Source: an uncultured Desulfosarcina sp.
GTDB lineage: Bacteria; Desulfobacterota; Desulfobacteria; Desulfobacterales; Desulfosarcinaceae
Length of the DNA: 64,000 bases
Assembly (NCBI GenBank): GCA_963674945.2
Contig: CAXXWQ010000003.1
Span: forward strand, 2,496,001-2,560,000
Direction of reading: 5' to 3'
Position numbers and translations under genes: made by a program. The first letter of the stretch is position 1, and the number at the start of each line of letters is the position of its first letter. Positions 23,229 through 42,257 of this stretch are shown piece after piece. The notes under the pieces were generated by a model that did not search any database, had not been told where the DNA came from, and was given only the letters and a program-made list of their open reading frames with translations.

Positions 23229-23984
23229 CTATTTAATGCCTCGGGCGTTCTTGATCTGTTCCCACGCTTCCTGGATTTCTCGGAATTTATCCTGGGCGAA
23301 ACGGGTGAATTCATCGGGAAGTCCCTTTGCGGCAATTTTATCGGGATGATACTCCTGAACACGTTGCCGGTAGCAGCGCTTGACCTGTTCATCGGAATCT
23401 TCCGGCCGGCAACCCAAAACCGCATAGGCACTGTCCGCCGTTTGAATGTATTTTGATTTAAGCTGCTGATACCGGGAGGCGCTAAAATTGAACATTTTAA
23501 CTGCCGATAGGATCATCGACTCTTCCGCATCGGTCATTTTGCCGTCGGATACCGCCACCCGCAATAGAATGTCGACCATCAATTCGATCAATTGGGGCTG
23601 GCCGTGAAAATTACCGTAAAACTGACCGGCAAAATCGGCAAATGTCCCCGGCGCATTCAGGGCCGTCCGAAAAATGTTTTCGGCTGCATGCCGCCCCTGA
23701 GGATCCAACCGCAGATCCTTTTCCATGAACGATTCGATACTATCGATCTCCGCTTGGGTGACCCGGCCATCCGCCTGGGTGAGCTTTGCCAGCATGGAAA
23801 AGGCCGCGACGAAAAATGTCAATTGATGTTTTTCGACGGAGCTCAGTTGTGGGCGTCCACTGGCCGTGTCCAGTTCCACACCCGTATCGAAGGCATGTCC
23901 GAAAGTCGCCCCAAGTATGGCGCCAAGCGGCCCACCGAGTGCGAATCCGATGGTTCCGCCTACCAATTTCCCAGTCCACCCCAT
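23229..23984 (-). CDS. djlA: Co-chaperone DjlA (TM + TerB-like + J-domain)
   Basis: GGPLGAILG..GHAFD, ADGRV..EI, C-terminal J-domain with YHPD. Confidence 0.9.
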   Translation of the reverse strand: MGWTGKLVGGTIGFALGGPLGAILGATFGHAFDTGVELDTASGRPQLSSVEKHQLTFFVAAFSMLAKLTQADGRVTQAEIDSIESFMEKDLRLDPQGRHAAENIFRTALNAPGTFADFAGQFYGNFHGQPQLIELMVDILLRVAVSDGKMTDAEESMILSAVKMFNFSASRYQQLKSKYIQTADSAYAVLGCRPEDSDEQVKRCYRQRVQEYHPDKIAAKGLPDEFTRFAQDKFREIQEAWEQIKNARGIK

Positions 23985-24116
23985 GGGGCATTCCTCCTAT
24001 CTTCGTCCATAGTCATGGGTAAAGAGGTGAAAAATGAATATCTCGTACCATAATTCCGTTGGGTTGCCAACAAAAGGGTGGATCTGTAACAAAAGCATTG
24101 GATGATTAGAAATGTA

Positions 24117-24145
24117 TTGAACTTTGGATATCTTATTCGTAATAT
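24117..24145 (+). promoter_or_regulatory. Possible sigma70 promoter
   Basis: TTGAAC, 17-bp spacer, TAATAT. Confidence 0.35.
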
Positions 24146-24205
24146 TAAAAGTTAATAATTCGCCATGCACTTACTCCCATTTCATGCCACGAAAGGTTGT
24201 CACTT

Positions 24206-25030
24206 ATGTTGTCATGGTGGACCAATATGGAATCCGTCGCTGCGGCTAACGATTGGCTCTTAACGGCTACGATTTTATCTGCACTCCTGACAGGCATCCT
24301 CATCTTTGTGAAGGCCGGAAAACAGAAACATGACGTCGAAAGCCTCTCCAGTGCCCTCCGATCTTCCCGCAGACAGGTTAAGGCATTGGAAAAAGCGGCC
24401 GAGGAGATCCGGAAAGAGTTGCTTGAGATCCAACAGCATCAGGACATCAATCAGATCAAACTGCAAAGCAACCAATCTTCCACGCAGGAGTTGCAAAACG
24501 CCCTTGCCGAAGCGCAACATCGGTTGAAGATCACCGAAGCGGCTTTGAATGAAAGGAAGATCGCAGAAGCCGCCCTGAAGAAAAAGAGAACGGCAACCAC
24601 GACAAAAGGCCGTTCGACCGGGTTATCCCAGGAATTGGAAACCGTTGAGGACCTTATGATTGATGTGCAACCTGCCATCGGCCTCAGCGATGACCAGCAA
24701 GAACAATTGATCGGCCTTCTCGATCCGGGACCAAAAGGAAACGTCGACATCTTTTGTATTGTGGATGATGAAAATTCTGAAACGACGGCCAGACAACTGG
24801 AATCGATTCTCAGCTCCGACGGATGGAAAACCAATGGTGTCGCAAAAAGTGCGTTCACCAAACCGCCCAAGGGGGTGGTTTTGGCGGTAAACAGCAAGGA
24901 TACGGCCCCTTCTTATGCCTCGTTTCTGCAGCGGGTCTTCTCGACGATCGGGATGATTGTTTCCCCGAAGATAGACAAGAAATACCGGGAATGGTCACTG
25001 ACCATTATTGTCGGTGATATTGAGAATTGA
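24206..25030 (+). CDS. Hypothetical protein: N-terminal TM, coiled coil, alpha/beta C-terminal domain
   Basis: ORF (alternative TTG at 24197) with TM LLTATILSALLTGILIFV followed by a heptad-rich region. Confidence 0.75.
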   Translation: MLSWWTNMESVAAANDWLLTATILSALLTGILIFVKAGKQKHDVESLSSALRSSRRQVKALEKAAEEIRKELLEIQQHQDINQIKLQSNQSSTQELQNALAEAQHRLKITEAALNERKIAEAALKKKRTATTTKGRSTGLSQELETVEDLMIDVQPAIGLSDDQQEQLIGLLDPGPKGNVDIFCIVDDENSETTARQLESILSSDGWKTNGVAKSAFTKPPKGVVLAVNSKDTAPSYASFLQRVFSTIGMIVSPKIDKKYREWSLTIIVGDIEN

Positions 25031-25069
25031 TTGACCCAAAAATGAAACTTCAGCTATGGAAAAACACCC

Positions 25070-25741
25070 ATGACAGCAAATATTGCCTCTCAAGCAAGCG
25101 ATCCCCAGAACAACCCGATGCTTTCCCGATTGACCTTGACAGCCGCCGGTCTAACGATTTTTTTGGCTGTACTCTCTCTGATTTTTAGCAACCGACTGGA
25201 AACGCTGCGCGTTGAATACCAAGATACGATCCGCAAGGGGGTCGCAACAGAGGCAAATGCAGAGCTGAATTCCGTCACGGCAGAGTTAGATGCCATGAAA
25301 CAATCCATGGAAGCCGAAAAAACGACGAACGACAAGCTCAAGAAAAAGATTGCCGTCATCACGAAAGAGTCGGAGAAGATAAAATCGGAATTGGCGCTGG
25401 CACAAAAAACCATTAAAGAGCTCCGCTCGGCCGAAACGTCTGCCGAAACCATGGAATCGTTGCCTTTTTCCGATTCCCCCATATCCGATGGGTTGCCAAT
25501 GGAAACGCCCCCCAACCCGGATACGGAGTCGAAAGATCTTTTACCCGAATCACAAGTGCAACCTTCCGTTTCATCCCATTCTGCAAAAGAGCCGCAAAAC
25601 ACTTCTTTGACCGAAGAATCGGTGGCGCCCGCTGCTTTGCCAGTTGAACCGGCGGCCCCATCCATTTCCGAGTCAATCCGGCCGGAACCTTCCGCGCCGG
25701 AGGAAAATGAGATTGCGTCCGATTCGAACCAAACGCAGTAA
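25070..25741 (+). CDS. Hypothetical protein: TM, coiled coil, Pro/Ser/Glu-rich disordered tail
   Basis: 223-aa ORF with TM LTAAGLTIFLAVLSLIF. Confidence 0.7.
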   Translation: MTANIASQASDPQNNPMLSRLTLTAAGLTIFLAVLSLIFSNRLETLRVEYQDTIRKGVATEANAELNSVTAELDAMKQSMEAEKTTNDKLKKKIAVITKESEKIKSELALAQKTIKELRSAETSAETMESLPFSDSPISDGLPMETPPNPDTESKDLLPESQVQPSVSSHSAKEPQNTSLTEESVAPAALPVEPAAPSISESIRPEPSAPEENEIASDSNQTQ

Positions 25742-25943: not shown

Positions 25944-27086
25944 ATGAAAGGTGACAATCTGGTATTTCTTGAAAATTTAGAGTGGTTCGACGAAAGCGGT
26001 CAGGAACTGGTACACCGTCTGCCGGAAAAAGGATCCGGTGAGATCAAATGGGGAGCCCAGCTGACACTACGGGAAAGCCAGGCAGGTGTATTCTACTATA
26101 AAGGTAAGGCAGTGGAGGCCTTCGGTCCCGGCCGTCATACGCTTACGACAGGTAACATCCCCTTACTGACAAAGATCGCCAGCCTGCCCTGGGGAATGAG
26201 CAGTCCACTAAGAGCGGAAGTCTATTTCGTCAACATGAAGGTCTTTACCAACCTTAAATGGGGAACAAGGGATCCGGTGGCCTTTAAGGATACGGAATTG
26301 GGACTGATCCGTCTGCGGGCATTCGGTGTATTCAATCTGCGGGTACTTCAACCGATACTGTTCATCAACACCATGGTGGGCACCCAGGGCATGTTTACCA
26401 CCGAAAGCATTGAAGAGTACTTGAATCGCGTCATCGTCTCCCGCTTTAACGATTATATGGGAGAAACCATCGACTCCATCCTTTCCCTGCCCGCCCAATA
26501 CGATGAACTGTCCCAAGGGCTTTCCAAGCGTCTGGAATCGGATTTTAAAAATTTCGGGTTGGGGCTCACCCACCTTTACATGAATGCCATCACACCTCCG
26601 CAGGAGGTTCAGAAGGCCATCGACGATCGAAGTCGAATGGGCGTCTTCGACGATATGAACAAGCTGATGCAGGTGAAGGCGGCCATGGCCATGGAGAAAG
26701 CCGCCGAGAAAGAGGGCGAAGGCGGCATGGGCATGGGAACGAGCCTGGGTTTGATGATGCCGGCCATGTTTGCCAACTATTTCAACGCTTCGAAACAAGG
26801 CAACGGCCATGGGGATTCGATGCCGGCATCTTACGAATCCACCACTTGCCAAGAGTGCCGATGCACCATTCCGGCCAATGCTAGATTTTGTCCCATGTGC
26901 GGTCATCAGCAGATCGTTTTTGACCAGTGCAGTCACTGCGGTAAAAATTTAGTTCCCAATGCACGATTCTGCTCCCGTTGCGGCCACCCGACCGAAGAAA
27001 AACCCGTTCCCATTTTTTGTGCATCCTGCGGGGCCGAAAATGTAGCCGGATCCAAATTTTGCACCAATTGCGGAGAAAAGCATTAA
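25944..27086 (+). CDS. SPFH (band-7-like, YdjI-type) protein with C-terminal zinc ribbons
   Basis: GAQLTLRESQ, FGPGRHTLTTGNIP, EVYFVN, KWGT, IRLRAFG, then six CxxC pairs. GGGAG SD. Confidence 0.9.
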   Translation: MKGDNLVFLENLEWFDESGQELVHRLPEKGSGEIKWGAQLTLRESQAGVFYYKGKAVEAFGPGRHTLTTGNIPLLTKIASLPWGMSSPLRAEVYFVNMKVFTNLKWGTRDPVAFKDTELGLIRLRAFGVFNLRVLQPILFINTMVGTQGMFTTESIEEYLNRVIVSRFNDYMGETIDSILSLPAQYDELSQGLSKRLESDFKNFGLGLTHLYMNAITPPQEVQKAIDDRSRMGVFDDMNKLMQVKAAMAMEKAAEKEGEGGMGMGTSLGLMMPAMFANYFNASKQGNGHGDSMPASYESTTCQECRCTIPANARFCPMCGHQQIVFDQCSHCGKNLVPNARFCSRCGHPTEEKPVPIFCASCGAENVAGSKFCTNCGEKH

Positions 27087-28314
27087 TTTTCTCATCGAAC
27101 ATCAATGCCCCCAATGCGGGGCACCGGCGACACTCGGCGAGACCGACCGATTGTTTCGCTGCGAATTTTGCAAGGTTACGTCATGCCTCGTGCCCCAAGG
27201 ATTCTTCCGGTATCTGCTACCTAACCGTGCACCCTACGATAAAGATCTGCTGTACGTTCCCTACTGGCGGTTCAAGGGCATGCTTTTTTCCTGTCTTTCC
27301 ACCGGGATCGAAAACCGATTCATGGATGTCAGCCATCTGGCGGTCCCGTCACCATTCTTTCCGGCCACCGTTGGACTTCGTAGTCAGGCCCTGAAATTGT
27401 CTTTTGTGGATCCAAAGGTGAAAGGTTGGTTTCTTCGCCCTACCCTTTTTTTTCATCAGGCAATGGAGATGTTCACACACCGTTTTAACCGTCATCATTC
27501 CGAAGATATTTTTCACCAGGCCCATATCGGTGAATCCGTAAGTATTTTGTATGCGCCATTTTATCTCGATGACGGTCTCGTCGATGGGGTGCTCAACCAG
27601 CCAATCCCGAAAGAGCCGGATACGATCTTCGATATCAACCAATTCACTGGGGGGCCGGCCGATTGGCGGGTCCGCTTCATTCCCACCTTATGTCCCGACT
27701 GCGGATGGGACATGAAGGGCGGTCACAAGGACGCCCTGGTCCTTTTTTGTAAAAACTGCGATACCCATTGGCAGGCGACCAAAAATGGCTTGGTCCGTGT
27801 CGAGGCAGCGCACATGCCGGGCAACGATGCCCAAGAGACCATCTACCTCCCCTTCTGGCGAGTCCGCGCAACCGTAACGGGGATTGATCTCTCCTCTTAT
27901 GCGGATCTCGTGAAAACCGCCAATCTGGCAAAAGCCGTCCAACCCGGTTGGGAAAAGCGACCCTTTTCCTTTTGGGGTCCTGCATTCAAAGTACGACCCA
28001 AAAGTTTTCTGCGTCTGACCCACCAGATCACCATGGTTCAACCGCGAGAAGAGTTGGTGGCCAGCGGCCCCAGAGGGAACGTCCACCCTGTAAATCTTCC
28101 CGTTTCCGAATCCATTGAGACCATGAAGGTGAACCTGGCCGGTATCATTCGGCAACAAAAGCACTTTGCAAAAATCATCGAAGCGATTCAGGTCACTCCG
28201 AAAAGCTACCTTCTGGTCTATTTCCCCTTTTCCGTACGTCACCACGATCTGGTTCAGCCGACCCTCAACATCGCCGTGAACCGTAATCAACTCGCCCTGG
28301 CCGGTAATCTATAG
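27082..28314 (+). CDS. Zinc-ribbon-containing hypothetical protein, probable ATT start
   Basis: The frame is open from 27046 and encodes CPQCG..CEFC upstream of the track's TTG (27151). It also has YVPYWR, CPDCG..CKNC and YLPFWR. Confidence 0.8.
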   Translation: MNFLIEHQCPQCGAPATLGETDRLFRCEFCKVTSCLVPQGFFRYLLPNRAPYDKDLLYVPYWRFKGMLFSCLSTGIENRFMDVSHLAVPSPFFPATVGLRSQALKLSFVDPKVKGWFLRPTLFFHQAMEMFTHRFNRHHSEDIFHQAHIGESVSILYAPFYLDDGLVDGVLNQPIPKEPDTIFDINQFTGGPADWRVRFIPTLCPDCGWDMKGGHKDALVLFCKNCDTHWQATKNGLVRVEAAHMPGNDAQETIYLPFWRVRATVTGIDLSSYADLVKTANLAKAVQPGWEKRPFSFWGPAFKVRPKSFLRLTHQITMVQPREELVASGPRGNVHPVNLPVSESIETMKVNLAGIIRQQKHFAKIIEAIQVTPKSYLLVYFPFSVRHHDLVQPTLNIAVNRNQLALAGNL

Positions 28315-28528
28315 TGTTTCTGTATTCGAATATGCTACGGCCCGGCGTGGTTTTTCCTTGAAAGCACGAAATTTTCGTGGTTGAATTCGGTAAGTGGAAA
28401 CTGCCTGCCGAGCCCCTTGAAAAGTGTTGAATCGGGGCATATCCGTTGTCGCTTCCTTTTGGCGCAATGGACACCGACCCGTGCCGGATGGAACATCTCC
28501 AATTTATCCTGCAACCAAAGGAGCGAAT

Positions 28529-29491
28529 ATGGCCCAACCCCTTTCCAGTCAACTGCTTCGACGGTCCTTCGTTAAGACCGTCCTTCGTCGTATCATTGCA
28601 TTCCTTACGTTGGTGGGGCTCGCATATGGTTTGATCGCCATCATCTACGCCACAAAAACCATCTTCAAGGTCAAAATGAATTACGCCGTGGTGCTGGAAG
28701 GGTTCGGCGGCGTCAGACAAGCGGTGACCGAAGTGGGCTGGCATGCCCGCCTTCCCTATTTCACACGGATCGAACAGGAAGTGCCGTTGATGAATCAGAC
28801 CATGCAACTGGGTGGCACACCTGCCCCCATGCGCATCATCTCAAGGGGAAACGTGGCACTGTGGACATCAGGAGTGCTGACATACCGAATCCGTGACCTT
28901 CACACCTGGGCCATCGAAAATCTGAACCCGCTGGATTTACTGCAAGGCGACTACGACGGAATCGTCAAGGACAACCTGCAGGCCCAGGAAGTAGACCGAT
29001 TGATCAGCGACCGGGAGACTATCAAGGAGGCGATCTTCACCGCCTTAAAGTCAAGACCCATCAACATCGGAGGTCCCACCATAGAAGAAAAATACGGAGT
29101 GGAAGTGGTCAGTTTCGTTCTCAAGGAGACTCGGTTCGGAGATAAACTCGTAGAGGCGTCGGAAGAGAAAAAGCGTCGGGAATTGATTGCCGAAGCCGAA
29201 AACTATGCCGCCGACCAGGAGGCAAGCCGGATACGAAAGCTCTATTCCGCCTATCTCGACGGCATTCAAAATCTGCAAGAGGCCTTGGGACGAAAGGATG
29301 CGAGCACCGATACCGCGCTTCTTCAATTTTTGACACAACAAAAATGGGCTACGGCCTACGAGAAGCAACAATTGGGGCAAAACACAGTGGTCATTCAAAA
29401 TACACAGGGCACCGCACCGCCGATCGTCCTTCCCGCTTTCAGTACCACCGAGAAATTGGAGGGAGAAAAAGATGGCCAGACGGCTGACTAA
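28529..29491 (+). CDS. Membrane-anchored SPFH/band-7 (HflK/HflC/prohibitin-like) protein
   Basis: ATG at 28529 after AAGGAG. One TM, then VVLEGFG..GWHARLPY, LTYRI, DRETI, YGVEVVSF and an E/A-rich coiled coil. Confidence 0.85.
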   Translation: MAQPLSSQLLRRSFVKTVLRRIIAFLTLVGLAYGLIAIIYATKTIFKVKMNYAVVLEGFGGVRQAVTEVGWHARLPYFTRIEQEVPLMNQTMQLGGTPAPMRIISRGNVALWTSGVLTYRIRDLHTWAIENLNPLDLLQGDYDGIVKDNLQAQEVDRLISDRETIKEAIFTALKSRPINIGGPTIEEKYGVEVVSFVLKETRFGDKLVEASEEKKRRELIAEAENYAADQEASRIRKLYSAYLDGIQNLQEALGRKDASTDTALLQFLTQQKWATAYEKQQLGQNTVVIQNTQGTAPPIVLPAFSTTEKLEGEKDGQTAD

Positions 29492-32400
29492 AGAGATCAC
29501 CTACGTCCAATTGCCGGAGGGCCGGATCCGGGAGATCAACGAATTGGTGTCCGCGTGGCCCCAGGAAACCAAAGCCTTCATGCGCGCCAGGCTCAATCAG
29601 TACCGTCCTCCAAGGGGTCTTTTCAACAGCGCTTTGGAAACGATCCTTTCTTTTTTCATGGATGCGCCGGAAAAACATTTCAACGTGTTAAAGGATCCCG
29701 ATATTCTGACGGACTGGCAAAAACGATTTGAAATTTCCGGACATACCAACCCGCAGGAGGCATGGAATAAAATCCTGGAGAAAGAGGTGTCTGCAAAAGA
29801 CTACCGCTATCTGCTCTACTTACTGGACAAGGAACTGCAGGACGTTCACGTTCCCGTCGAACTGAAAGATCTGTTCGAAAAAGTATATCGCGCCCACTTG
29901 CGAAAGGAGTACATCTCCGATTCGAATGTCCCCAAGTCTTCCCTTTTGCTTTTCATCGGACCGTCCGGCAGTGGAAAGACCTCCACCGTCACCCATGCCA
30001 TCGATCGTATCATTTTCGGAAACGAGGTGTTACCGGAAGTCGACCTGCACCAGAAGAAGGAAGCGGCGCTGGCCGGCGAGCATTTCTGGAAGACCATCGA
30101 AGAGATCGACCCGACACTGGCCGTGGAGATTTCCCAAAGAAAAAAACTGAATTTCTACAAGCGCATATCTACGATTCCCGTGCTACGCTTACTTCTGAAG
30201 AAGAGAATCGGAAAGAACCTGTCAAAACTCCAGGAACAGGGCGTCTGGGTGGATTATGCCATGGTCACCCCCAACGATTTTCAGACCGCGCTGGCGGGGG
30301 AACCCGGCAATTACTTCAAAAAGGCCCTGGGTGACCCCAGAAAGATGGCCATCCGGCATGTGGAAGAGGCCCACAGTGCCTTCGGAAGGGCCACAGGGCG
30401 TGATTCCGGGGTAGCACGACAACAAAGAACCCTGGTGGATACATCGAATATCGTCCTGGATGAGATCATCAACGGTAGTCGAGACTGCCTTCTCATCGCC
30501 ACAACGGATCAACCCGAGAGATTTGATTCCGCCATCTACCGCCGTTTCGTGGAAAAGGGACGTATCATCAATATTTCCGATTATTGGACGAATCCTGAGA
30601 ATCTACAGGAAGTGGTTCGACTGGAATTGATGCGAAACGATATTTCGGTCCTTTCCGAGGAAGACCATCCTTCTGCCGCCAGATCAAAATCAATCACGCG
30701 TCAGGACCTTTCCACGACGGTGGACAAGCTCTATTCCATTTTCAAGGAACGAACCTTGAAAGTGATCCCCTCTTATGTACGAAAACTGATCCACTCCATC
30801 ATTCAGATCAAAGGTGATTTTTCCGTCTCCTATCTCAACGATGCCATGCTGGTTCGCAAGGCCTTCGAGTTGGTGGCGCAAAACTCCTATGGCGATCTTT
30901 ATAAGAAGGTCGTCGGCCGCATGGACCGAGATGTCAAGTGGGAGGCCTATGTGGGAAGTATTAAGGATATCTTCTCGGAGATGACCAACAACTGTCTCTT
31001 TTACAATGTCAGCGAAGAAAAGGGCGTTGTGCTCAATGGACCACCGGGAAGCGGCAAGACGTTTTTGGCACGAACCTGGCTCAGTGAAAACACGGATGTC
31101 CACGATATCGCCACCAGTGCAAGCGCCCTGCAGGATCCGTCAAACCCCGTGGATGGTGCCGTGGACAACCTGGAAAAAATTTATGACATCGCCAAGATGA
31201 TTGCACCGACGGTGGTCTTTTTCGACGAGGGGGATGCCCTTGCCCCAAAACGAAGTGGCACCGGTGGAAATCCATCGGACAAACTGACCAACAAATTCTT
31301 AAACCTGATCGATGGCGAGACCCCCCTTCACAAGGTGTTTACCGTTCTCACCACCAATCGACTGGATATCCTCGACCCTGCCCTTATCCGCTCCAAGCGA
31401 CTTAAGGTTCTGGAGATCAAGGGGCTATTACAAAAAGACGACATCCTTCAGATTGTGGACAATGCACTGGAAGGTGTTCCCTTGTCGGCGGATCTTACTA
31501 CGGGTAAGATCGTCGATGCGGCAAAAGGCGTATGCAACACCCCTGCTGATTATGCCGCCTTCGTGGAAAAGGCACGGTCTTTGCGCAATACGGAGTACGA
31601 GGTGATCCTGCGCCTTCGGCAGATTCGCAATGACTCCGAAGAAAGTCGTAAGAATTTCATCAAGTTTAATTTCAAGACCCTGATCGGTATTTTGGATGCC
31701 TTTGATAAGGACAATCAGCTGAAGAAAACCGTCAAGGGGAATGCGGATCGTTTTTTGGAGCAGTACGAAGAGATCCTGAAATTGCTGGAACCGGTCCAAG
31801 ATCCAAATGACTATCCCATGGTATCCAGCCATCTCAAATCGGCCCGTCAGGAAATCTCGGAAAGTCCCACCAAGAAGGGAAAGGTGGTCCTGGACGAATT
31901 TTTAGAGGCGGAGTTGAGCCAGGAGCCCCAGGTTGGCTTTATCATCGGCGTGGGCGCGAACGAGGTAACCGGCGTTCTTTTGCCTATCGCCACGAGCCTT
32001 ACCTACCGCCTTTCTTCGGAAAAGGTTATGGTTACAGGTGCCGTCTCTTCCTCCTCGTCAGCCGGTGCGCAGATGGAAATGGCAGTGCAAATGACCCAGC
32101 AAAGCGCCCATGAAGCCCTTACCATGGTAAAAAATTACCTGCAGGAATTGAATCCCAAGGTAAATGCGGCGAGACTGCTTGGTGAATTTCTGGACAAGTA
32201 CACCATTCACCATCAACTTCTTAGTGCATCCTACAACGTGGGAGGCCCTTCGGCAGGATATGCGCTGGCCATCAACACGCTGTCCGCGCTGATGCACATT
32301 CCGGTCTATCATGACTTTGGCATCACCGGTGCTCCCTGGACCAAAGGGGTCAAACGGGGTGAGGTGGGCGGCTCCGTCATCATCGGCGGCCAGCGTAAGA

Positions 32401-32891
32401 AATCAGAAAAGGTTCTCATGTATCTTCGCCGAATGTATATGCCGCTAAAGAATTACATGGATTTGGAGAAGGAGTTTCTCGTTAACTACTGGCTCCAGGA
32501 CAAGGATATTTTAGGGGTAACCCATTTCGGCGACCTGGTTCCGGAAGTAATCTGTCTGGATCCGGAATATGAGCAGATTCTTCAGGATCTCATCGAAGCC
32601 CGCATCCGATACAAAGTAGATAAATACCAGGGGCAGGGATCCGATGAAATGGTGAAAGAGGAGATCCTCAGGAAAAAGGAAATTTTGAGAATTCGTGTTG
32701 AAAAAGAGATCAAGGGCCGGCTCAGCTCCCTGCGCCGTTATCTGAGGAGTCCGGCCAGAGATCCGCATCTCAGCATAGAAGAAATTTTTCGAAGACCGGA
32801 ATCTCCGATGATCCATTTGACCGATCCCTTCAAGCGTCTCATGCGAAAAGTACGTTCCCAGAACAAAATACGGATGAACACAAAACGATAA
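29472..32891 (+). CDS. Tandem AAA ATPase fused to a C-terminal Lon-type (S16) protease domain
   Basis: Walker A GPSGSGKT (aa 163) and GPPGSGKT (aa 523). Walker B HVEE and FFDE. SRH motifs TTDQPERFDSAIYRRF and TTNRLDILDPALIRSKRL. Lon motifs GGPSAG (S927) and IGGQRKK (K977). Confidence 0.88.
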   Translation: MARRLTKEITYVQLPEGRIREINELVSAWPQETKAFMRARLNQYRPPRGLFNSALETILSFFMDAPEKHFNVLKDPDILTDWQKRFEISGHTNPQEAWNKILEKEVSAKDYRYLLYLLDKELQDVHVPVELKDLFEKVYRAHLRKEYISDSNVPKSSLLLFIGPSGSGKTSTVTHAIDRIIFGNEVLPEVDLHQKKEAALAGEHFWKTIEEIDPTLAVEISQRKKLNFYKRISTIPVLRLLLKKRIGKNLSKLQEQGVWVDYAMVTPNDFQTALAGEPGNYFKKALGDPRKMAIRHVEEAHSAFGRATGRDSGVARQQRTLVDTSNIVLDEIINGSRDCLLIATTDQPERFDSAIYRRFVEKGRIINISDYWTNPENLQEVVRLELMRNDISVLSEEDHPSAARSKSITRQDLSTTVDKLYSIFKERTLKVIPSYVRKLIHSIIQIKGDFSVSYLNDAMLVRKAFELVAQNSYGDLYKKVVGRMDRDVKWEAYVGSIKDIFSEMTNNCLFYNVSEEKGVVLNGPPGSGKTFLARTWLSENTDVHDIATSASALQDPSNPVDGAVDNLEKIYDIAKMIAPTVVFFDEGDALAPKRSGTGGNPSDKLTNKFLNLIDGETPLHKVFTVLTTNRLDILDPALIRSKRLKVLEIKGLLQKDDILQIVDNALEGVPLSADLTTGKIVDAAKGVCNTPADYAAFVEKARSLRNTEYEVILRLRQIRNDSEESRKNFIKFNFKTLIGILDAFDKDNQLKKTVKGNADRFLEQYEEILKLLEPVQDPNDYPMVSSHLKSARQEISESPTKKGKVVLDEFLEAELSQEPQVGFIIGVGANEVTGVLLPIATSLTYRLSSEKVMVTGAVSSSSSAGAQMEMAVQMTQQSAHEALTMVKNYLQELNPKVNAARLLGEFLDKYTIHHQLLSASYNVGGPSAGYALAINTLSALMHIPVYHDFGITGAPWTKGVKRGEVGGSVIIGGQRKKSEKVLMYLRRMYMPLKNYMDLEKEFLVNYWLQDKDILGVTHFGDLVPEVICLDPEYEQILQDLIEARIRYKVDKYQGQGSDEMVKEEILRKKEILRIRVEKEIKGRLSSLRRYLRSPARDPHLSIEEIFRRPESPMIHLTDPFKRLMRKVRSQNKIRMNTKR

Positions 32892-38891: not shown

Positions 38892-39620
38892 TCACATGTT
38901 TCGCAGGATCGGGTTATGAAGGAAGGATCTTTTTTTCCCTCTCGGAACATGTGGATCGCCAGTATCCGAAGGGTGGATCGCCTTGCTCAGCTGTTCCAGA
39001 AAAACCTTTCTCGGAATTTCCCGCGCACCGAACCGGATGAGGTGGTCTGTTTTCACCTGGCAATCGATGAGAAGGACATCGTTCTGCTTGAGCGCATTCA
39101 CAAGTGCCACGAATGCCACCTTGGAAGCGTTGCTCACACGACTGAACATGGACTCCCCGAAAAAGGCACGGCCCAACCAGACACCGTAGAGACCTCCGAC
39201 GAGTTCACCGTCCTGCCATGACTCCACCGAATGTGCGAATCCATACCGGTGAAGTTCACAATAGGCATATCTCATTTCATCGGTAATCCAGGTTCCCTCT
39301 CCGTAAGATCGCTTGGCCTCGGCGCATCCTTGTATCACACTGGTAAACGCCCGATCGAAAGTGACCTGAAATTGTCCCCGTTTGATTATTTTATGAAGGG
39401 ATCTGGAAACTCTCACTTCATCAGGATATAGGACGAGCCGGGGATCGGGAGACCACCAGAGAATTGGTTCGCCTTTGCAATACCAGGGGAAGATTCCATT
39501 TCGATAGGCAAGAAGCAGGCGATCGACGGTAAGGTCTCCACCGACGGCAAGAAGACCTTCATCGATGGCCAGGTGGGCCGGTGGAAAAGATAACCGACTT
39601 GTCAGTGTGAATACGGGCAT
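38892..39620 (-). CDS. aat: Leucyl/phenylalanyl-tRNA--protein transferase
   Basis: [33 protein letters not shown]. Confidence 0.96.
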
Positions 39621-39707: not shown

Positions 39708-41945
39708 TTACTCGTATTGGAATGTAACCGCGTCTTGTTCCATCTCCAATTTCACCATGCCACCTTTTTGCAGACGTCCAAAGAGAATTTCATGGGCCAG
39801 CATGTCCTTGATTTCGGATTGGATGACTCTCGCCAGAGGCCTCGCACCGTTTTGGGGATCGTACCCTTTTTTTGCCAGATAATTCCTTACGGCATCCGAA
39901 TATGCCAGGGACACTCTCTTTCCGGCCAATTGGTCGGAAAATTCCTTCATGAACTTGTCGACAATCTTTCCCATGATAGTGGAATCAAGAGAGTTAAAGG
40001 TGATGATGCCATCGAGGCGGTTTCGAAATTCCGGGCTGAACAGCTTTTCAATGGCTTTTTTCCCCTTACCGGTACTATCGCTTTTTGGGTCTCCGAATCC
40101 GATGGTGGCGCTGCTCATCTCGCGGGAACCGGCATTGGAGGTCATCATGACGATGACATTGCGAAAATCAGCCTTCTTTCCGTTGTTGTCCGTCAAGGTG
40201 GCATGATCGAGCACCTGGAGCAGGATGTTGAAAAGGTCTTCGTGCGCCTTTTCAATCTCATCCAACAGAAGGACACTGTAGGGGTGCTTTCGGATGCCAT
40301 CGGTGAGCAATCCGCCCTGATCGAAACCAATGTAACCGGGGGGGGCACCGATAAGCCTTGCAACGGCATGCTTTTCCATATATTCGCTCATGTCGTACCG
40401 CATGAACTCGACATCCAATTGTTGGGCCACTTGACGCGCTACCTCAGTCTTTCCAACACCCGTGGGACCGGTAAAAAGGAATGATCCGACAGGTTTTTCC
40501 GGTTGCCCGAGTCCTGCCCGGGATCGTTTGATGGCGGTTACAAGTGCGTCGATGGCATCGTCCTGGCCAAAGACCACCTGGCGCAGCTGATCGCCGAGAT
40601 TCTCCAGCTTGGTCTTGTCCGGTGTGGAAACATTGACGGCGGGAATCCGTGCAATTTTGGCGACGATCTTTTCGATATCCGACGGATGGATCTTTTTCCG
40701 GTTGGCGGGACCGGAGAGGCGAATGGCCGCACCGGCTTCATCGATGACGTCGATGGCTTTGTCCGGAAGGTACCGGTCGTTTATGTATTTTGCCGACAAC
40801 TCGCATGCCGCCTTGAGCGCGCCTTCGGTGTATTCGATCTCATGATGTTCCTCGTATCTGGATCGAAGCCCCTTCAGGATTTTGACGGATTCTTTGATGG
40901 GAGGTTCGAGGATATCGATCTTTTCGAACCTTCTGGACAGAGCACGATCCTTTTCGAAATGATTTTTGTACTCCTCGTAGGTGGTGGAGCCGATGCAACG
41001 AAGCTCACCGGTGGAGAGAAACGGTTTGAGGATATTGCTGGCATCCATGGATCCGCTGCTGGTGGCACCCGCACCGACGATGGTGTGAATCTCGTCGATG
41101 AACAAGATGGCATTTTTCCGCTTCTTCAACTCTTCCACGACCCCTTTGAGGCGCTGTTCGAAATCCCCCCTGAACTTTGAACCGGCCAACATGCCACCTA
41201 AATCCAGGGAAAAGATCCGGACCTCCTTCAACAGTTCGGGGACCTCACCATCCCATATCTTTTGTGCCAGTCCCTCGGCCATGGCGGTCTTGCCAACTCC
41301 TGGATCGCCGACAAAAATCGGGTTGTTCTTCCGGCGACGACAAAGCACCTGCATCGTTCTCGTCATCTCCAATTCGCGACCGATCAACGGGTCCAACTTC
41401 CCCTTTGCGGCCCTATCGATGAGATTGATGGTGTATGCCTCGAGTGGATTCGCCTTTTTCTTGTCGCTCTTTTTTTCGGTACCTTTTTCGGTCTCCGGCA
41501 TCTCTTCAGGCGGATTCCCATGTACTTCATGGGAAATGACCCGCAACACGTCGAATCGGGTTATTCCCTCCTCATTCAGAAAGTATACGGCATGGCTGTC
41601 CTTCTCCATGAAGAGGGAGGCCAGAATATCGCTTACCGCCACTTCCTTCTTTTCCGCGGAACGGACATGATTCACGGCGCGCTGGATGACCCGTTGGAAC
41701 CCGATGGTCTGCTGAAGGACATACTCGCTCTCTTCGGGGATCATCTCCATGTCGTTTTCGAAAAAGGTCTCCAGGCTGGCCTTGATCTTTTCCACGTCGC
41801 CACCGCATTTTTCCAAGATCTCCAGCCCCGTGCTATCATGCAGGATGGCGAACAATACATGTTCTACGCTGACATATTCGTGTCGTCGTTTCTTGGCTTC
41901 TCGAACGGCAAAGCCCAAAGTGGCACTGAGTTCCTTACTGATCAT
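39708..41945 (-). CDS. clpA: ATP-dependent Clp protease ATP-binding subunit ClpA
   Basis: Two AAA modules (GDPGVGKT, GPTGVGKT), GAPPGYIG pore loop, IGF loop. Adjacent to clpS. Confidence 0.96.
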   Translation of the reverse strand: MISKELSATLGFAVREAKKRRHEYVSVEHVLFAILHDSTGLEILEKCGGDVEKIKASLETFFENDMEMIPEESEYVLQQTIGFQRVIQRAVNHVRSAEKKEVAVSDILASLFMEKDSHAVYFLNEEGITRFDVLRVISHEVHGNPPEEMPETEKGTEKKSDKKKANPLEAYTINLIDRAAKGKLDPLIGRELEMTRTMQVLCRRRKNNPIFVGDPGVGKTAMAEGLAQKIWDGEVPELLKEVRIFSLDLGGMLAGSKFRGDFEQRLKGVVEELKKRKNAILFIDEIHTIVGAGATSSGSMDASNILKPFLSTGELRCIGSTTYEEYKNHFEKDRALSRRFEKIDILEPPIKESVKILKGLRSRYEEHHEIEYTEGALKAACELSAKYINDRYLPDKAIDVIDEAGAAIRLSGPANRKKIHPSDIEKIVAKIARIPAVNVSTPDKTKLENLGDQLRQVVFGQDDAIDALVTAIKRSRAGLGQPEKPVGSFLFTGPTGVGKTEVARQVAQQLDVEFMRYDMSEYMEKHAVARLIGAPPGYIGFDQGGLLTDGIRKHPYSVLLLDEIEKAHEDLFNILLQVLDHATLTDNNGKKADFRNVIVMMTSNAGSREMSSATIGFGDPKSDSTGKGKKAIEKLFSPEFRNRLDGIITFNSLDSTIMGKIVDKFMKEFSDQLAGKRVSLAYSDAVRNYLAKKGYDPQNGARPLARVIQSEIKDMLAHEILFGRLQKGGMVKLEMEQDAVTFQYE

Positions 41946-41948
41946 TTT

Positions 41949-42257
41949 CTATTCCTGTTCCATACTGCAACGTAGCGGAAAGCCGCTTTCACGTGCAAGA
42001 TTGTGGACCGTATCGACCTTGGTCTCGGCAACTTCGTGGGTATACACCCCACAAACACCGATCCCTTTCCTGTGAACGTTCATCATGATCTTCACCGCCG
42101 CCTCCGGAGATTTGTTGAACACATACATCAGCACCTCAACGACGAATTCCATGGTGGTATAATCGTCATTGTGCAAAAGCACCCGGTACATGGGCGGTTT
42201 ATCGGTTATTTCCCTGGTCTGGGAATCCGATTGTGATTCTGTCTGATATCGAGACAT
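41949..42257 (-). CDS. clpS: Clp protease adaptor ClpS
   Basis: YRVLLHNDDYTTMEFVV, AETKV, FPL. Confidence 0.96.
   Translation of the reverse strand: MSRYQTESQSDSQTREITDKPPMYRVLLHNDDYTTMEFVVEVLMYVFNKSPEAAVKIMMNVHRKGIGVCGVYTHEVAETKVDTVHNLARESGFPLRCSMEQE

Follow-up and report, generated by a model that had tools for sequence, protein, structure and literature searches.

What does a membrane-anchored scaffold protein of the SPFH superfamily do beside a soluble protease built from two AAA domains and a Lon peptidase domain, and how might the two act together? The question is raised by two adjacent genes in a 64,000-nucleotide stretch of DNA (hereafter the window; positions 2,496,001 to 2,560,000 of contig CAXXWQ010000003.1, assembly GCA_963674945.2) from an uncultured Desulfosarcina sp. 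The upstream gene encodes an SPFH (Band_7) protein with a single transmembrane (TM) helix, and the downstream gene encodes the AAA-AAA-Lon protease (Table 1). A first-pass annotation of the sequence had read the two as a dedicated module, a possible alternative to HflKC–FtsH in which an SPFH cage recruits or encloses a p97-like protease.

The pair was followed through 82 loci, of which 74, every one with a title that is deltaproteobacterial or unassigned proteobacterial, came from a genome scan limited to the best 80 of 81 matches, 5 from a phylum sample and 3 from metagenomes; the last are those kept (52–66% identical to the window protein) of 38 metagenomic loci found with a distant alignment, after 35 generic AAA loci were dropped. 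Defining a locus as informative if the protease start and at least 150 nt upstream of it were present left 67 of the 82, and an SPFH ortholog lies directly upstream of the protease in all 67, so the gene-neighbourhood comparison proposed earlier came out in favour of conserved adjacency. Among 251 genomes of the class, 68 match both the SPFH and the protease profiles, 183 match neither and none matches one alone, which supports the notion of a dedicated two-gene module, the genomes counted for linkage being kin and the counts not independent events. Within the family (56 genomes) SPFH was found in 42 and the protease in 44, the two extra proteases being fragments, and the protease occurs in 6 of the 301 genomes of the phylum sample, the present genome counted. 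Flanking genes vary among lineages and the pair is retained. Purifying selection is strong on both genes, with nonsynonymous divergence (dN) of about 0.09–0.10 against near-saturated synonymous divergence (dS) of 1.7–2.4 in four comparisons; the mirror-tree correlation of the two proteins (r = 0.91, 51 pairs) reflects shared descent and is not used as evidence of binding. The SPFH–protease pair is a real, conserved two-gene module, its linkage near-obligate and far beyond chance.

Twelve of the 15 uninformative loci are cut by contig ends, and another (L051) matches the protease only from residue 814, close to its contig start. The remaining two are decayed copies: in L009 (3490-6054) an internal deletion fuses SPFH residue 238 to protease residue 512, and L039 (2964-4250) retains only protease residues 560–984, the SPFH gene and the N-terminal half of the protease being gone. 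Genomes G314 and G337 carry the protease in pieces, and assembly error is possible for such decayed copies. Genome G348 holds two complete pairs (G348:C39 and G348:C160), each with its own SPFH gene.

The protease is 82–86% identical to those of named Desulfosarcina species and has full-length homologues at 35–39% identity, including two clusters named Woesearchaeota and Nanoarchaeota. Pfam recognizes AAA at residues 519–646 (E 8e-30) and Lon_C at 809–998 (E 6.5e-7; 29.6 bits against 21.1), and a further P-loop domain has its Walker A at 163–170; residues 1–153 have no Pfam match at E 1e-5, the Cdc48 N-domain included. No TM segment was found, as the top hydropathy window (1.66) falls in a β-strand region of the Lon domain. 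The structure model has a predicted local distance difference test (pLDDT) score of 81 and a predicted template modelling (pTM) score of 0.59. The best PDB sequence matches of the motor are VAT and p97, and Foldseek aligned around 700 columns to p97/Cdc48 across both rings. The second AAA domain (D2) carries two arginines in the second region of homology (R640 and R643), a pair typical of the classical AAA clade (PMC7973254). In a domain tree, a split of 100/97 separates the family's first AAA domain (D1) with Cdc48 D1 from the family's D2 with Cdc48 D2 and FtsH; branches in this tree are long, its bootstrap had not settled and its Cdc48 rows were picked for their similarity to the query sequence. 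All 11 D2 domains score highest on the Cdc48-D2 profile; for D1 the profile scores are weak, Cdc48 D1 being the top profile for 8 of 11 domains, FtsH for two, among them that of the window, and Cdc48 D2 for one. By these measures the motor is not Lon's own and consists of two classical AAA domains, with D1 strongly diverged, and the simplest reading of the origin of the protease would be a Cdc48 D1–D2 tandem that lost its N-domain and was fused to a Lon domain. The initial description of a p97/Cdc48-like, TM-less double AAA fused to Lon is thus borne out, and the catalytic residues are intact.

Conservation of these residues was counted in 182 distinct full-length homologues, DPANN archaeal ones included (173 near, 9 distant). 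K169, E299, K529, E586, N629, R640, R643 and K977 are invariant (182/182), and the catalytic S927 is present in all except one sequence that is out of frame at that point (181/182). The Lon domain aligns to solved Lon domains with the Ser–Lys dyad present, and K977 falls on the lysine of the IGG-x3-K motif in the Lon structure 1xhk. Its peptidase centre, GPSAG, classes as A-type by the Pro rule for such centres (PMC9569914). D1 keeps Walker A K169 and Walker B E299. Because the key residues are invariant, ATP hydrolysis is predicted at D2 and probably also at D1.

The SPFH protein consists, in order, of a basic N-terminal helix, the TM helix, SPFH1/2, a long helix (CC1), a second helix (CC2) and a short C-terminal strand. 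Residues 47–232 match Pfam Band_7 (E 2.3e-15; 57.5 bits against a cut-off of 23.6), and the N-terminal anchor, the CC1/CC2 helices and the C-terminal strand likewise match superfamily features. The two helices span residues 203–252 and 261–279 in a monomer structure model; the strand is placed from conserved sequence only, with a model pLDDT below 50 there. The top Foldseek matches of this model (pLDDT 64) are HflK/C, prohibitin, stomatin and QmcA, with no subfamily singled out, and the protein has no match to the hflK or hflC NCBIfam models (TIGR01932/01933, E 0.1). None of 65 homologues has a second hydrophobic segment (maximum 0.97). Within the conserved N-terminal helix, a candidate contact site for the protease, R12 is invariant across 51 aligned rows and R20 occurs in at least 90% of them.

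On which side of the membrane the SPFH dome lies can be estimated from the charges flanking the TM helix. Lys and Arg residues are more numerous before than after it in 60 of the 65 homologues, equal in 5 and fewer in none. The count of the window protein (5 before, 3 after) resembles those of HflK from its own genome (4 and 2; 3 and 2), unlike two further control proteins of that genome that we label, partly by neighbourhood, QmcA-like (0 and 3) and stomatin-like (1 and 3). In Escherichia coli, HflK/C is predicted to be periplasmic and QmcA cytoplasmic (PMC10434171). The SPFH protein is predicted to be N-in/C-out with its dome in the periplasm, so that the dome and the protease probably lie on opposite faces of the membrane, and enclosure of a cytoplasmic protease becomes less likely than coupling across the membrane. 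The contact between HflK/C and FtsH is made by the periplasmic domain of FtsH inside the cage (PMC12048511); an opposite-face layout would rule out a contact of this type and leave the conserved cytoplasmic N-terminal helix and a fenced lipid patch. Such a layout, as predicted, matches the arrangement in endoplasmic reticulum (ER)-associated degradation (ERAD), in which a lumenal erlin cage associates with ERAD factors, and substrates are retrotranslocated to the cytosol by p97 (bioRxiv 2025.04.21.649849).

A candidate membrane dock on the protease is the helical insertion in D1. It occupies the place between Walker A and B at which LonB carries its membrane-insertion sequence (PMC9569914), but is basic-amphipathic and not transmembrane. 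Residues 222–250 form a kinked basic-hydrophobic helix with a net charge of +10 and conserved hydrophobic positions, and a basic insertion is found in 181 of the 182 homologues (median +8 per 18 residues).

We put at about an even chance the proposal that the module is a membrane-associated degradation machine, coupled across the membrane and additional to FtsH–HflK/C. SPFH subunits would assemble as a ring, their TM helices fencing a patch of membrane and their dome predicted to be periplasmic; on the cytoplasmic side their conserved basic N-terminal helices would form a second ring. A hexamer of the protease, stacked as D1–D2–Lon with the D1 pore towards the membrane, would dock from the cytoplasm through the D1 insertion, which would bind anionic lipid and possibly also the SPFH N-terminal helices. 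Membrane proteins held in the patch, whether damaged, unassembled or regulated, would then have their cytoplasmic tails threaded through D1 and D2 and delivered to the Lon chamber. Lacking aromatic pore loops, the motor of this lineage probably has a weak grip and favours substrates that are loose or unfolded beforehand. Oligomeric state, topology, docking, contact and substrates are all inferred. With respect to the first-pass model of an SPFH cage, its enclosing form is weakened by a charge pattern that predicts a periplasmic dome, and its ERAD-like form fits better. We regard as tentative, and rather less probable than the proposal above, a bolder version: a prokaryotic, one-operon analogue of ERAD in which an outer-face SPFH dome fences a patch and a single-chain Cdc48–Lon protease attaches underneath through a basic hairpin, extracting and degrading membrane proteins without ubiquitin, proteasome or TM anchor, which would be a sixth ATP-dependent protease architecture, common to sulfate reducers and DPANN archaea.

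Several observations weigh against a machine of this kind. On the SPFH side, the segment following the TM helix is basic (+3) with no acidic residue, like that of the QmcA-like control, and one HflC control has two Lys or Arg residues on each side, so the topology signal is modest. On the protease side there is no FtsH-like periplasmic domain, and the distant homologue P0252 has no D1 insertion. The SPFH N-terminal helix and the D1 insertion are both basic and would not attract each other. The insertion may instead bind nucleic acid or an acidic protein, because its score on a lipid-binding discriminant of the HeliQuest type is charge-driven, with a hydrophobic moment of 0.21 at the median, and the threshold is passed by 26% of 184 control windows as well. 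Ser and Lys of the dyad are separated by 49 residues in 181 of 182 homologues, owing to a 7-residue insertion, whereas 42 intervening residues are given for all Lon subfamilies (PMC9569914). In D1 the Asp of Walker B and the Asn of sensor 1 are replaced, which makes strong ATP-driven extraction doubtful. Pore loop 1 of D1 reads ALAG here and has Leu in 171 of 182 homologues (W or Y in 8 of the 9 distant and only 3 of the 173 near sequences), and the D2 pore loop (residues 556–562) is aromatic in just 7 of 182, whereas all 11 CDC48 controls have W, Y or F. Since neither ring of the window protein has an aromatic residue in pore loop 1, strong unfolding is doubtful.

The enclosing form of the first-pass model, in which the SPFH dome faces the cytoplasm, as in QmcA and stomatin, and caps or encloses the protease hexamer on the membrane, gating substrate access, is unlikely in our judgement. 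It would explain directly why the SPFH protein is paired obligately with a TM-less protease; the basic post-TM segment fits it, the C-terminal helix–helix–strand resembles that of stomatin and QmcA, both among the fold matches, and the QmcA–YbbJ cage protrudes into the cytoplasm (PMC13086221). Against these points stand the N-in charge bias, which is reversed in no homologue, and the QmcA-like and stomatin-like controls, which have 0–1 Lys or Arg before the TM helix compared with 5 here. A three-tier hexamer of 1139-residue chains would also be tight in cages around 110–165 Å high, by a rough estimate.

More unlikely still is a regulatory pair, in which the main client of the protease would be the SPFH scaffold itself or a few partners, the N-terminal helix being gripped and the ring dismantled or turned over. 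Co-inheritance is strictly one to one, the SPFH N-terminal helix is conserved, and a Cdc48-type motor is of the complex-disassembling type, all of which would suit such a role. In Pyrococcus, moreover, the NfeD protease PH1510 cleaves its operon-partner stomatin PH1511 (PMC13086221). A closed Lon chamber, however, suits processive degradation of many substrates, and other pairs of SPFH proteins and AAA proteases act on third-party substrates.

The degenerate features of the rings could also mean that they serve mainly as a nucleotide-gated scaffold, leaving a LonC-like chamber peptidase that degrades already unfolded polypeptides near the membrane with little extraction. LonC, a Lon that lacks ATP-powered unfolding, sets a precedent (PMC3391209), and both the missing aromatic residues in the two pore loops of the window protein and the degenerate Walker B and sensor 1 of D1 point the same way. 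LonC, however, has lost the Walker B Glu, the sensors and the Arg finger (PMC3391209), all of which D2 keeps here in 182 of 182 homologues; D1 also retains K169 and E299, and distant homologues retain W or Y in the D1 loop. We consider this reading improbable.

Anti-phage defence by a membrane sensor scaffold with an ATPase–protease effector, a role left open by the first-pass annotation, has little support and is very improbable: the layout of an ATPase and Ser protease in two genes, a patchy presence (the pair was not found in 12 of 56 family and 183 of 251 class genomes searched) and weak PADLOC matches to IetA/TRIP13 (best E 3e-14) are set against PADLOC 2.0 matches that are confined to the generic AAA core and absent for the SPFH protein, searches of plasmids, phages and viral contigs without a match, stable housekeeping neighbourhoods within genera, a tree that largely follows host families, and high conservation.

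The module shares its genome (7.08 Mb) with two hflK–hflC pairs, four copies of FtsH and two of LonA, each of which exceeds its NCBIfam cut-off. Because these coexist with the pair, the module is additional; an alternative to HflKC–FtsH in the sense of a replacement is not supported and was rejected. By the features compared, it lies outside HflKC–FtsH, Cdc48 and every Lon subfamily, and it is predicted to work like an SPFH-associated AAA protease. With FtsH–HflK/HflC and prohibitin/m-AAA it shares a single-TM SPFH protein of the same predicted N-in, periplasmic-dome topology, tied to a classical-clade AAA protease that has motor and peptidase in one chain. It differs in having one SPFH gene rather than the HflK/HflC paralog pair, two AAA rings, and a Ser–Lys Lon peptidase instead of an M41 zinc peptidase; unlike FtsH, the protease has no TM or periplasmic domain (TIGR01241 score 59.8 against a cut-off of 600).

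Its tandem classical AAA domains group with D1 and D2 of Cdc48/p97/VAT, and a soluble motor predicted to feed a peptidase chamber recalls the archaeal Cdc48–20S protease, as the SPFH cage predicted on the far membrane face recalls erlin–p97 ERAD. In contrast to Cdc48, the protease scores 85.6 on TIGR01243 against a cut-off of 802.65, has no Cdc48 N-domain match, and carries a large D1 insertion, a non-aromatic D2 pore loop and its peptidase in cis; in contrast to erlin–p97 ERAD, no ubiquitin system is invoked. Members of the Lon family (LonA, LonB, LonC and LonBA) likewise have an S16 domain with an A-type Pro-Ser centre behind an AAA module, but theirs is a single HCLR-clade module, where the present protease has two classical (clade 3) AAA domains, the longer Ser–Lys spacing described above and Lon NCBIfam scores all far under cut-off. 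Of the subfamilies, LonA bears an N-domain, LonB a TM insertion and LonC a dead ATPase, whereas the present protease is TM-less and its D2 motifs are intact. In the NfeD–stomatin and QmcA–YbbJ systems, as in the module, a conserved operon joins an SPFH gene to that of a serine protease (PMC2636767), but the partner here is a soluble ATP-dependent protease instead of a membrane NfeD, and no NfeD gene belongs to the module. The available text of that paper gives NfeD partners and FtsH links for SPFH proteins, and no other conserved partners.

We found no description of a module of SPFH and Cdc48–Lon proteins in a literature search in which subscription journals were mostly not covered, nor is it described in the available text of PMC10354927 or PMC13086221. 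The combination of a Lon peptidase with a double-ring motor derived from Cdc48, which fails curated family cut-offs, is apparently an undescribed architecture. Known architectures of ATP-dependent proteases are few: Clp, HslUV, Lon, FtsH and the proteasome. The module offers a two-gene, putatively homo-oligomeric system for asking by what means a protease without an anchor of its own is controlled by an SPFH cage, a question that is open for erlin–p97 and hard to isolate in HflKC–FtsH. Cultured hosts of the pair include Desulfosarcina alkanivorans, D. widdelii, D. variabilis, Desulfofustis glycolicus and Desulfopila aestuarii. The shift at the D1 pore loop from W/Y in distant members to Leu in those of Desulfobacterota is a natural test of how unfolding power depends on pore loops.

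Table 1 Positions of the SPFH–protease module, its parts and neighbouring features (window coordinates unless a contig is given)
Feature	Position	Strand	Remarks
SPFH (Band_7) gene, 320 aa	28529..29491	+	ATG 28529, TAA 29489-29491
GGAG motif preceding SPFH gene	28520-28523		just 5' of ATG
SPFH basic N-terminal helix, residues 6-21	28544..28591	+	predicted cytoplasmic; helix in structure model
SPFH TM helix, residues 22-40	28592..28648	+	sole hydrophobic segment, KD19 2.42
Protease ribosome-binding site, GGAGGGAG	29458-29465	+	GGAG at 29458 and 29462, inside SPFH coding end
SPFH/protease overlap, 20 bp	29472-29491	+	
AAA-AAA-Lon gene, 1139 aa	29472..32891	+	ATG 29472; TM-less
Helical N-terminal domain, residues ~1-150	29472..29921	+	
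D1, divergent Cdc48-D1-like AAA domain, residues ~151-480	29922..30911	+	
D1 helical insertion, residues 182-258 (77 residues)	30015..30245	+	between Walker A and B
D2, Cdc48/VAT-D2-like AAA domain, residues ~481-813	30912..31910	+	followed by helical extension
Lon S16 peptidase domain, residues ~814-1030	31911..32561	+	
Catalytic codon S927	32250-32252	+	
Catalytic codon K977	32400-32402	+	
C-terminal long helical hairpin and basic tail	32562..32888	+	tail absent from distant homologues
Two hflK-hflC pairs	G000:C4 852714-857236 and 383527-385625		one pair then ftsH
DjlA-like TerB/DnaJ gene; two membrane-anchored coiled-coil genes of unassigned family	23229-25741	-; +	syntenic in Desulfosarcina
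Soluble SPFH gene, YdjI-like	25944-27086	+	PF13421 Band_7_1 with zinc ribbons, TM-less
Cys-motif gene	27151-28314	+	no Pfam, NCBIfam or PADLOC match
Terminator-like hairpin	28334-28351		between upstream gene and SPFH gene
Presumed aat-like gene	38892-39620		name from sequence motifs
Presumed clpS-like then clpA-like gene	39708-42257	-	~6-7 kb downstream; names from sequence motifs

Open reading frames confirmed the junction as first annotated, with a single-TM SPFH gene, the 20-bp overlap and a GGAG within the SPFH coding end. One contig of run X1 spans the stretch without differences; it is possibly the source of the same DNA and so not independent. The intergenic distance ranges from −62 to +202 nt and is at most 52 in 64 of 65 pairs, an operon-like spacing. 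Overlap occurs in 28 of the 65, exactly 20 bp in 24, and the other 37 are spaced by 1–202 nt; the overlap was rejected as a special feature because most pairs lack it, and its exact length is an incidental lineage detail. A scan found no sigma-70-like promoter upstream of the SPFH gene, with counts at the level of shuffled sequence and hence uninformative, and terminator-like sites such as the hairpin ahead of that gene occur at chance frequency.

The two genes immediately upstream of the pair, the YdjI-like SPFH gene and the Cys-motif gene, are both kept in 22 of the 55 loci with at least 3.5 kb of upstream sequence, mostly in Desulfosarcina and Desulfobacteraceae. A four-gene system including the YdjI-like gene was rejected as the core on this count, and the two genes may be a lineage-specific accessory. 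In the ESM Atlas, two archaeal clusters (Thermoproteota and Bathyarchaeota) of 909–919 residues combine AAA with Lon_C (score 0.97) and may represent a related family of AAA–Lon fusions.

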